This document shows positions 6,001 through 9,000 of a stretch of DNA of 64,000 nt, in pieces. The stretch comes from Escherichia coli O127:H6 str. E2348/69. GTDB taxonomy: Bacteria > Pseudomonadota > Gammaproteobacteria > Enterobacterales > Enterobacteriaceae. A program made the position numbers. The stretch lies in assembly GCF_000026545.1 (NCBI RefSeq), contig NC_011601.1; one strand, written 5' to 3'. How positions within the stretch are numbered: the first letter of the stretch is position 1; every line of letters starts with the position of its first letter.

Positions 6001-9000
6001 TTAAGCGCGGTGAGCAGGTTATTACTGACGTCACCCTGTTAAAACCGTGTGCCGGAACCCTTCGCGGTGTCAGCCTGGCATCAGTCGCAAACTCTGACGT
6101 CGATGCGCTGATTAAAGTGCTGCCGCGCATGACCATGCCGTCGCTGACCGAGCAGGAAGCCGCCGCACTGGAGCTGCCCGACCTGCTGTCGTTTGCCGGT
6201 AAGGTGGTCGGTTTTTTGTCACCGAGTTAGGCGGCGTAATCTTCCCGCAAAAACTCACGGTCGATGACCTGATGGCTGACATAGCGGTAATTTTCCACTG
6301 GTCGCCATCAGACCTGTATCCCATGAGCCTGACCGAACTCGTCAACTGGCGCGAAAAAGCGCTACAGCGAAGCGGAAACACGAATGAGTAATAACCTCAA
6401 ACTCGAAGTGCTGCTGAAAGCTGTCGACCAGGCGACCCGACCCTTTAAAGCGATCCAGACGGCGAGCAAATCGCTGTCTGGCGATATCCGCACGACTCAG
6501 CAATCCCTGCGTGATTTGAATGGTCAGGCATCGAAAATCGACGGTTTTCGCAAAACCAGCGCACAACTGGCGGTAACCGGACAGGCACTGGAAAAGGCAA
6601 AACAGGAAGCCGCCGAGCTGGCGGTGCAGTTTAAAAACACGGAACGGCCAACGGCGGCACAGGCCAGAGTGCTGGAATCAGCAAAGCGTTCGGCTGAAGG
6701 GTTACAGGCAAAATATAACAGCCTCACCCAATCGGTGAAGCGGCAACAGACCGAGCTCGGCAAAGCGGGGATTAATACGCGCAATCTGTCGAATGATGAA
6801 AGCCGCCTGAAAAACTCTATCAATGAAACTACCGCACAACTTAACCGCCAGCGTGAAGCACTGGCGCGGGTCAGCGCGCAACAGGCAAAACTCAGCGCAG
6901 TACAAAAACGCTATCAGGCAGGAAAGGCACTGGCTGGAAATGCGGCATCGATGGGCGCTGCCGGGATAGGCATGGCAACGACCGGAGCGCTTGCCGGTGT
7001 TGCACTGATGAAGCCCGGTTATGATTTTGCTCAGAAAAACTCTGAGTTACAGGCCGTTCTCGGTGTCGGTAAAGACTCAGCTGATATGGTGGCGCTCCGC
7101 AAACAGGCGCGCCAGCTCGGTGACAACACCGCCGCGTCGGCTGATGATGCTGCCGGTGCTCAGATTATTATTGCAAAGGCTGGCGGCGATGCTGCGGCTA
7201 TTCAGGCCGCTACCCCCGTAACACTCGATATGGCGCTCGCAAACCGTCGAACGATGGAAGAGAACGCCGGGTTATTGATGGGGATGCGCTCTGCCTTCCA
7301 GCTTTCAAACGATAAGGTCGCCCATATCGGTGATGTTCTGTCGATGACGATGAACAAAACCGCCGCCGACTTTGACGGCCTGAGTGATGCGCTGACTTAT
7401 GCCGCGCCGGTGGCGAAAAATGCCGGGGTCAGCATCGAAGAAACAGCCGCAATGGTCGGCGCACTGCATGACGCCAAAATTACGGGATCGATGGCGGGTA
7501 CGGGGAGCCGTGCCGTATTAAGTCGCCTGCAGGCTCCAACGGGCAAAGCGTATGACGCCATTAAAGAGCTCGGCGTCAAAACGGCTGATGGTAAGGGGAA
7601 CACACGTCCAATATTTACCATCCTGAAAGAAATGCAGCGGAGTTTTGATAAAAACAACCTCGGCACCGGCCAGCGTGCCGAATATATGAAAACCATTTTC
7701 GGTGAAGAGGCCAGCTCGTCGGCTGCGGTACTCATGACCGCTGCCTCGAGCGGGAAATTAGACCAGCTTACCGCTTCCCTTAAAGCATCGGATGGCAAAA
7801 CCGCTGAGCTGGTGAAGGTCATGCAGGATAACCTCGGCGGCGATTTTAAAGAGTTTCAGTCTGCGTATGAAGCGGTAGGAACCGACCTGTTTGACCAGCA
7901 AGAGTCATCATTAAGAAAGCTGGTACAAACGACGACAGGGTATGTATTGAGGCTCGATAGCTGGATCCAAAAGAACAAATCTCTTGCCACCACGCTGGGT
8001 GTCATTACGGCGGCAGCTGTCGGTATTGTGGGGATGATTGGTGCCATTGGCCTTGTATCGTGGCCGGTAATTACTGGCATTAACGCCATCATTTCGGCGG
8101 CTGGTGCGCTTGGTGCGGTCTTTACGACAATCAGTGGCGGGGTCATTGCGGCTATTGGTGCTATTACGTGGCCTGTCGTGGCGGTAGCGGCGGCTGTTGT
8201 CGCTGGCGCGCTGCTTATCCGTAAATACTGGGAGCCTGTCAGCGCATTCTTTGCCGGTGTGGTCGAGGGGCTCATGAGTGCCTTTGCGCCGGTCGGGGAA
8301 ATGTTCGCCCCGCTGGCACCCATTTTCGACGGTCTCGGCGAAAAACTTCGCGGCGTCTGGCAGTGGTTTAAAGACCTGATAGCGCCGGTGAAAGCGACTC
8401 AGGACACGCTCAACAGTTGTCGTGATGTTGGGGTTATGTTCGGTCAGACGCTGGCCGATGCACTGCTGATGCCGCTTAACGCCTTTAACAAGCTGCGAAG
8501 CGGGATTGACTGGGTGCTCGAAAAACTCGGCATTATCAACAAAGAATCCAGCTCACTTGACCAGACTGCGGCGAAAGCCAATGCAGCGACGCAGAACGGT
8601 TACAGCCCGGCAATCAGCGCATACAACAGCTATCAGCCGGTCACGGCACCCGCCGGTAAAACCTACATCGACCAGAGTCGGCCAATCTATCAAATCACCG
8701 TGCCGGGCAATGGTATGCCGGGAGATCGGTTGGGTAATGATTTGCAGGATGCATTAGAAAAGTATGAGCGCGAGAAGCGCGCCAAAGCCCGCGCAAGCAT
8801 GATGCATGACTAAGGAGACTGATTATGATGCTGGCATTAGGTATGTTTGTTTTTATGCGTCAGACGCTGCCCTACCAGAGCATGCAGCGCAGCGCGGATT
8901 ATAGCTGGGCGTCAAACTCTCGCATCGGGAAGCGTGACGCTTTTCAGTATCTCGGCGAGGGGGAAGATAAAATCACCCTGAGCGGTGACCTGTATCCTGA

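Follow-up and report, generated by a model that had tools for sequence, protein, structure and literature searches.

An intact E/E+E' programmed -1 ribosomal frameshift cassette, as predicted from sequence, in a P2/186-like prophage remnant of Escherichia coli E2348/69

Results and discussion

We identified in E. coli E2348/69 a locus which is, with high probability on the strength of its sequence, the E/E+E' programmed -1 ribosomal frameshift cassette of a P2/186-like (Peduoviridae) prophage, carried by this strain as a recent passenger. The window that we analyzed is a stretch of 64,000 nucleotides that matches E. coli E2348/69 with 100% identity, and the cassette is located in it between the tail tube gene FII and the tape-measure gene T. 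The evidence consists of the anatomy of the slip site, the homology of both reading frames to known tail proteins, and a -1 frame that is conserved and carries a coding signature, all of which are observed directly; from characterized phages we infer that slippage occurs, at what rate, and what the proteins do. The mechanism is already known, and the present locus is an ordinary, truncated instance of it. Its practical consequence is for annotation, since RefSeq/PGAP splits the locus into a 'phage tail assembly protein' and a 39-aa 'GpE family phage tail protein', and the second product should be corrected to a predicted 144-aa frameshift fusion, replacing the separate 39-aa gene.

Slip site and reading frames

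Gene E (5958..6230, + strand, with its ATG at 5958) encodes a tail assembly chaperone whose 0-frame product is 90 aa long, and which is annotated in RefSeq as 'phage tail assembly protein' (WP_000361834.1). Near its end lies the slippery heptamer TTTTTTG (6212..6218, + strand), which is read in gene E in the phase ggT_TTT_TTG, corresponding to the X_XXY_YYZ pattern of a -1 shift site (T_TTT_TTG). A gap of 9 nt separates the heptamer from the E stop codon TAG (6228-6230), which thus starts 10 nt past the final G, as the original prediction had it. The same prediction placed the site immediately before the tape-measure gene; the site does precede T, but the wording is loose, since T lies 166 nt downstream of the heptamer and this gap is occupied by the E' extension.

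The number of open codons 3' of the slip site is 3 in the 0 frame, 15 in the +1 frame and 57 in the -1 frame, the last of which terminates at the TAA at 6389-6391, overlapping the ATG of gene T (6384) within ATGAGTAA. An early closure of the -1 frame had been named as the observation that would speak against the original prediction, and a frame open to the start of T as the one in its favor; it is the latter that we found, with all 57 codons open. In the upstream direction, frame translation puts the limit of the -1 ORF at a TAA stop codon (6200..6202, + strand), 3 codons 5' of the slip site, and the frame is open from 6203. As this stop codon closes the -1 frame upstream, the -1 ORF is enterable at the slip site only. 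The upstream stop is not universal, being missing in 11 of the 39 upstream haplotypes, which have GGC or GGG at this place.

Heptamers of the T6G type are common in the window, where 31 copies are found on both strands. We therefore do not rely on the heptamer itself but on its geometry, for which we required that at least 60 codons be open in phase upstream, that the 0 frame stop within 15 codons, and that the -1 frame stay open for 50 codons or more. The heptamer at 6212-6218 is the sole one to pass this filter among the 31 T6G and the 335 A/T-type X_XXY_YYZ heptamers in the window.

According to the mechanism that we propose, most ribosomes translating E would read GGU UUU UUG UCA CCG AGU UAG and produce the 90-aa chaperone E. 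A minority would slip back by one base, with tRNA-Phe on UUU (6213-6215) and tRNA-Leu on UUG (6216-6218), restart at GUC (6218) and add the 57 residues of the E' extension (6218..6391 including the stop codon, + strand), ending 8 nt inside T. Joining codons 1-87 of E to the 57 codons of E' gives a predicted E+E' fusion of 144 aa. By homology with P2 and by analogy with G/GT of lambda, the shared E part may bind the tape measure protein and the E' part may recruit the tube protein FII, and both E and E+E' would probably be absent from the finished virion.

Homology of the two frames and of the neighboring genes

Both frames of the cassette match known families. Gene E matches PF10109 (Phage_TAC_7) with an E-value of 1.3e-8 and a score of 35 bits against a cut-off of 25, over residues 9-87 of the fusion, as well as phrog_103 with an E-value of 1e-40. 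The -1-frame part of the fusion matches PF06528 (Phage_P2_GpE) over residues 106-141 with an E-value of 6.2e-22 and a score of 77 bits against a cut-off of 23, and phrog_1756 is aligned to residues 85-144, where residue 85 corresponds to the slip site. Searches of the fusion against PDB sequences and NCBIfam returned no match. RefSeq annotates in this part of the locus a 39-aa CDS, 'GpE family phage tail protein' (6272..6391, + strand; WP_000763326.1), which we read as the C-terminal part of E+E'.

The neighboring genes, all on the + strand, are tail genes as well. Upstream of E are FI, encoding the tail sheath (4177..5364), and, directly adjacent to E, FII, encoding the tail tube (5377..5895); the Pfam matches of these two genes are PF04984, PF17482 and PF04985, of which PF04985 belongs to FII. 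Downstream, gene T (6384..8813) encodes a tail tape measure protein of 809 aa (PF10145; phrog_28, E-value 5e-229), and its start overlaps the E' stop by 8 nt. It is followed by U (8825..9289) and D (9292..10464), identified by Pfam matches (PF06995 and PF05954 for the two genes) and the RefSeq annotation, and by an ogr-like late activator gene (10541..10759; RefSeq annotation), which closes the FETUD-ogr block. Upstream of FI, no exact match to the P2 late-promoter motif TGT-N12-ACA was found, either in the window or in P2.

The anatomy of the cassette is almost the same as in P2, whose record (NC_001895) lists E and a joined CDS for E+E', and marks a 'site of -1 translational frameshift' at 19685, with TTTTTTG at 19678-19684. 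The 20 nt AAGGTGGTCGGTTTTTTGTC around the heptamer are identical in P2 and in the window, and the phase of the heptamer is also alike; a gapless alignment of the 195 nt between the slip site and the T start shows 84% identity, and the fusion proteins (144 aa here, 142 aa in P2) are 79% identical over 139 residues. Comparison with P2 E' had been suggested as a check on the original prediction, and the E/E' programmed frameshift arrangement that it proposed is borne out by this identity together with the phase of the heptamer and the open -1 frame. The gene order FI-FII-E-E'-T-U-D-ogr and the 8-nt overlap between the E' stop and the T start are common to both elements. The sole anatomical difference is in the position of the E stop, which is 18 nt past the heptamer in P2, making E 91 aa long, and 9 nt past it here, making E 90 aa long. 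The elements as a whole differ further: the parent prophage of the one in the window has a 186-like early region (CI, CII, Fil), the cassette is here inside a deletion remnant, and the surrounding tail genes of sequenced phages have only about 74-77% nucleotide identity to those in the window.

The programmed -1 frameshift of P2 E/E+E' was described by Christie et al. (2002, J Bacteriol 184:6522; cited here through PMC3091744 and PMC5009743). According to these two articles, a single start gives rise to E and E+E' in a fixed ratio, and tail assembly requires both proteins. Xu, Hendrix and Duda (2004), as cited in PMC5009743, placed such shifts in a conserved class of tail-chaperone frameshifts that includes lambda G/GT.

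Conservation across phages

A tblastn search with the fusion matched 414 phage records, in 400 of which E and E' are both matched, as separate segments in different frames. The 80 related IMG/VR loci, defined as those recovered with E, all have an in-phase heptamer (T6G in 79 and T6A in one), and in the 78 loci whose sequence reaches the -1 stop, the open stretch of the -1 frame comprises 57-62 codons. The arrangement extends to distant Peduoviridae from Salmonella, Burkholderia, Pseudomonas, Arsenophonus, Klebsiella, Zymomonas, Mannheimia and Aeromonas: all ten of those analyzed have an in-phase X_XXY_YYZ heptamer (T6G, T7, T6C or G_GGA_AAG), followed by a -1 frame of 51-73 codons with the motif ADIAxIFHW...WRE.A..RSG.

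Furthermore, the -1 frame carries a coding signature. Among 65 distinct haplotypes, pN/pS is lowest in the -1 frame, both in the E' core (0.29) and in the linker that lies upstream of ATG 6272 and past the E stops (0.41, with 1.8-4.2 in the other frames). Overall, the values of the other two frames range from 0.77 to 5.8.

Comparison with lambda, dnaX and IS cassettes, and possible stimulators

Like E/E', lambda G/GT consists of two overlapping ORFs between the major tail or tube gene and the tape-measure gene, and a -1 shift towards the 3' end of its first ORF leads to a low, fixed ratio of long to short product. It is by analogy with this system that we assign a chaperone role to the products here. 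However, G/GT has no detectable sequence similarity to E/E', its slip site is G_GGA_AAG, and the lambda tail is non-contractile whereas the P2-type tail is contractile. Sites of the P2 type shift 2-3 times more often than that of lambda, which does so about once in 30 times (review PMC5009743). The E. coli dnaX and IS cassettes share with the present one the X_XXY_YYZ heptamer, tandem tRNA slippage, the host translation system and a 5' Shine-Dalgarno (SD)-like sequence, but in these cassettes the SD sequence is 9-14 nt 5' and a stem-loop is 5-9 nt 3' of the heptamer (PMC5009743), whereas in the window the SD-like sequence is at 2-3 nt and there is no significant 3' structure.

With respect to the latter, shuffled sequences fold as well as the first 60 nt 3' of the heptamer (z-scores of -0.36 in the window and -0.01 in P2), and a stem-loop or pseudoknot of the dnaX/IS type, 5-9 nt 3' of the heptamer, is absent. 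P2 resembles the window in this respect, and no 3' structure is reported for P2-like phages (PMC3091744). Farther downstream, between about +54 and +90 nt, a hairpin has a z-score of about -2.4; it is too distant and lies within conserved coding sequence.

On the 5' side, the putative SD-like sequence AAGGUGGUC (6201..6209, + strand) ends 2-3 nt before the heptamer and is part of a weak hairpin at 6195-6212, which together with the T run was flagged by a terminator scan. This sequence is the strongest anti-SD complement anywhere in E (-12.8 kcal/mol), and the same holds in P2, Salmonella RE2010 and Pseudomonas Sirocco. None of the 512 synonymous encodings of the same peptide does better, and 3% of them attain its value (2% with weighting for codon usage). 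All 69 sequences have AAG as its Lys codon, whereas other conserved Lys columns vary or favor AAA. As SD sequences that stimulate -1 shifts are spaced 9-14 nt from the slip site, and a spacing of 3 nt is that of +1 (RF2-type) shifts (PMC5009743), we rejected AAGGUGGUC as a dnaX-type stimulator. Moreover, an element like it is missing in 5 of the 11 lineages, and its spacing elsewhere varies from about 1 to 11 nt. Without a 3' structure, and with the SD-like sequence at the wrong spacing, the efficiency of the shift would thus depend on the heptamer by itself, as reported for P2. It is conceivable, though we consider it rather unlikely, that AAGGUGGUC and the weak hairpin form a conserved cis-modulator of P2-type frameshifting, acting at a spacing that has until now been associated with +1 shifts alone; if so, it might explain how P2-type sites reach a rate 2-3 times that of lambda without a 3' structure. 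The conservation of AAGGUGGUC may, on the other hand, merely reflect that of the GKVVG peptide. Our literature search on SD-type stimulators of tail-chaperone frameshifts returned general papers only.

The remnant prophage and the question of selection

The element that harbors the cassette is about 11 kb long and is located between yfiB and rplS. Apart from the genes FI, FII, E, E', T, U, D and ogr, it contains two hypothetical genes, an integrase pseudogene truncated at its 5' end, the C-terminal fragment of a tail-fibre gene, tfa genes, and an invertible fibre-assembly segment with its recombinase (invertase). The RefSeq annotation of the element includes no head, baseplate, tail-completion, lysis, replication or immunity genes. 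By comparison, the yfiB-rplS site of E. coli strains PCN033 and FORC 064 is occupied by a full-length prophage, about 32 kb in size, which shares its end genes with the remnant and whose content includes integrase, CI, CII, replication, head, lysis and baseplate genes. The complete tail gene set, namely, baseplate V, W, J and I, full H, completion R and S, and FETUD, is present in PCN033 at this site, and the remnant holds only a part of it. The deletion junction is at 1243..2079, where the integrase pseudogene (1243-1593, - strand) abuts the C-terminal fragment of the tail-fibre gene H (1585-2079, + strand) in the RefSeq annotation, and this int'/'H junction occurs in only three assemblies among 5,426 complete genomes, all of them of E2348/69. 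Since about 23 kb were lost between int and H, no tail can be built from the remnant. We found no description of the E2348/69 remnant in the literature. Over the 7,488 positions between the invertase end and the right end, 11 differences (0.15%) separate the remnant from the full prophage, and the E and E' proteins are the same as those of the full prophage in PCN033 and FORC 064.

These results bear on the claim of the original prediction that the intact site reflects purifying selection on the tail module, as opposed to decay. It is true that the ORFs of FI, FII, E, E', T, U, D and ogr have all stayed intact, as would be expected of a module that is kept functional. However, the baseplate, tail-completion, head, lysis and replication genes are gone, and at a divergence of 0.15% from the full prophage intactness is expected by default. 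When the changes were polarized with a 90%-identical prophage, and with eight further viral contigs at the positions that they cover, seven fell on the E2348/69 branch, of which three are synonymous (one of them homoplastic) and four are non-synonymous, namely, D109N in FI, T8I and S14T in the E' extension, and D50Y in D. Under the family-wide pN/pS of these tail genes, 0.088, at least four non-synonymous changes of seven have a probability of 0.043. The probability of at most four of seven is 0.23 if the changes are neutral, and the counts, small as they are, are compatible with neutrality. The little signal present points towards relaxed constraint, within the limits of such small numbers and of changes that may predate the deletion. 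The number of substitutions expected in the heptamer on the E2348/69 branch is only 0.008, and hence a young remnant would be expected to have an intact site whether it is under selection or not. We conclude that the cassette is a recent passenger whose intact signal reflects its youth and not demonstrated selection; that the tail module is kept functional by purifying selection is improbable, and the claim is left unsupported by the deletion, the low divergence and the ratio of four non-synonymous to three synonymous changes. More generally, an intact recoding signal in a prophage fragment that is 0.15% diverged from a complete prophage should not be taken as evidence of selection.

Alternative explanations

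The RefSeq annotation implies that E' is an independent 39-aa gene, starting from its own ATG at 6272, in which case the T6G heptamer would be incidental. The PF06528 match starts exactly at the Met of this ATG, which is invariant in the 65 close haplotypes (65/65), and the anti-SD pairing before it (-5.1 kcal/mol) is no weaker than at the true starts of E and T; these are also weak, so that SD strength is unable to discriminate at ATG 6272. However, the -1-frame coding signature reaches 5' of this ATG (pN/pS of 0.41 vs. 1.8-4.2), the phrog_1756 alignment begins at residue 85 of the fusion, that is, at the slip site, and in distant relatives the Met becomes V, I, E or A while the heptamer and the open frame persist. 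The records of P2 and KS5 carry a joined CDS, and P2 genetics, as cited in PMC3091744, speaks against a separate gene as well. Judged on these sequence comparisons, E' as a separate gene is very unlikely. A split of another kind, in which E and E' would be the halves of one gene broken by a frameshift mutation as the remnant decayed, might be suspected because the host element is a degraded prophage, but both proteins, E and E', are identical to those of the full-length prophage in PCN033 and FORC 064, and the two-frame layout is also found in P2, in 400 of the 414 matching phage records and in all 80 viral contigs. This reading is ruled out by the same arrangement in P2 and hundreds of phages, and we give it practically no weight.

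The longer product might also arise from slippage of RNA polymerase on the T6 run, with an extra U in a fraction of the mRNAs. The slip site is indeed a homopolymer run, and the weak terminator-like hairpin at 6195-6212, followed by the T run, could pause the polymerase. However, productive bacterial cases involve runs of about nine A or T (PMC5009743), and the run here has six; one relative has G_GGA_AAG, a non-homopolymeric heptamer of the tandem-slippage type; and the X_XXY_YYZ phase is always kept, which matters for the re-pairing of tRNAs and is irrelevant to the polymerase. Transcriptional slippage is therefore unlikely, to a degree comparable with that of a separate E' gene, and programmed -1 ribosomal frameshifting is the reading that we retain.

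The products predicted by these readings differ at the junction. The tryptic junction peptide of the E+E' fusion would be VVGFLVTELGGVIFPQK, for which the fusion is the only possible source. Transcriptional slippage would yield a Phe-Phe-Val junction only, in the form VVGFFVTELGGVIFPQK, and a Phe-Leu-Val junction is incompatible with it.

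Deletion junction and ends of the prophage remnant

We located the deletion junction of the prophage remnant at 1243-2079 of the window, where a truncated integrase pseudogene adjoins a C-terminal tail-fibre fragment, and among 5,426 complete E. coli genomes this int pseudogene/tail-fibre junction was found only in the three E2348/69 assemblies. The same yfiB-rplS site is occupied by a full-length prophage in E. coli PCN033 and FORC 064. Both genes at the ends of the remnant, encoding hypothetical proteins of 309 aa (324-1253, minus strand) and 240 aa (10797-11519, minus strand), are found in these two full-length prophages as well, and are possible cargo genes beside the attachment sites. 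The "complete" PCN033 copy may itself be defective, since its replication endonuclease gene (9915-12137 in the PCN033 sequence, L097) contains an internal stop and the adjoining host yfiB (L097 4854-5336) is a pseudogene.

Retained tail-fibre and late genes

Despite its truncated fibre gene, the remnant keeps an invertible tail-fibre segment (1585-4112) comprising the H C-terminus, tfaE, and an inverted second tfa with an alternative fibre C-terminus, and the Hin/Gin-type recombinase gene of this segment is intact. The orientation of the segment in FORC 064 is opposite to that in PCN033, and therefore it flips in nature. An ogr-like late activator gene (10541-10759) is also retained, together with a GC-rich hairpin 3' of it (about 10765-10789) that resembles the P2 ogr/F-operon terminator. 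With this gene and hairpin kept and the CI repressor gene deleted, the remaining late operon might be constitutively transcribed.

Shine-Dalgarno-like element upstream of the slippery heptamer

The Shine-Dalgarno-like sequence AAGGUGGUC lies 2-3 nt 5' of the slippery heptamer TTTTTTG near the end of gene E (6195-6218 for both elements). Its synonymous positions are conserved in the P2-like group, and among synonymous encodings it has the top anti-SD affinity. However, its spacing to the heptamer differs from that known for stimulation of -1 frameshifting. The same bases form a weak hairpin followed by the T run of the heptamer, and were flagged as terminator-like.

Other regions of the window

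A second horizontally acquired region, unrelated to the prophage remnant, spans about 23022-35153, and contains, in order, ssrA (tmRNA), degraded integrase and IS21 pseudogenes, and the EspC island, which carries the espC autotransporter toxin gene and an EspG-domain effector gene. Farther along, pdxR of E2348/69 (about 50392-51725) is annotated as a frameshifted pseudogene.
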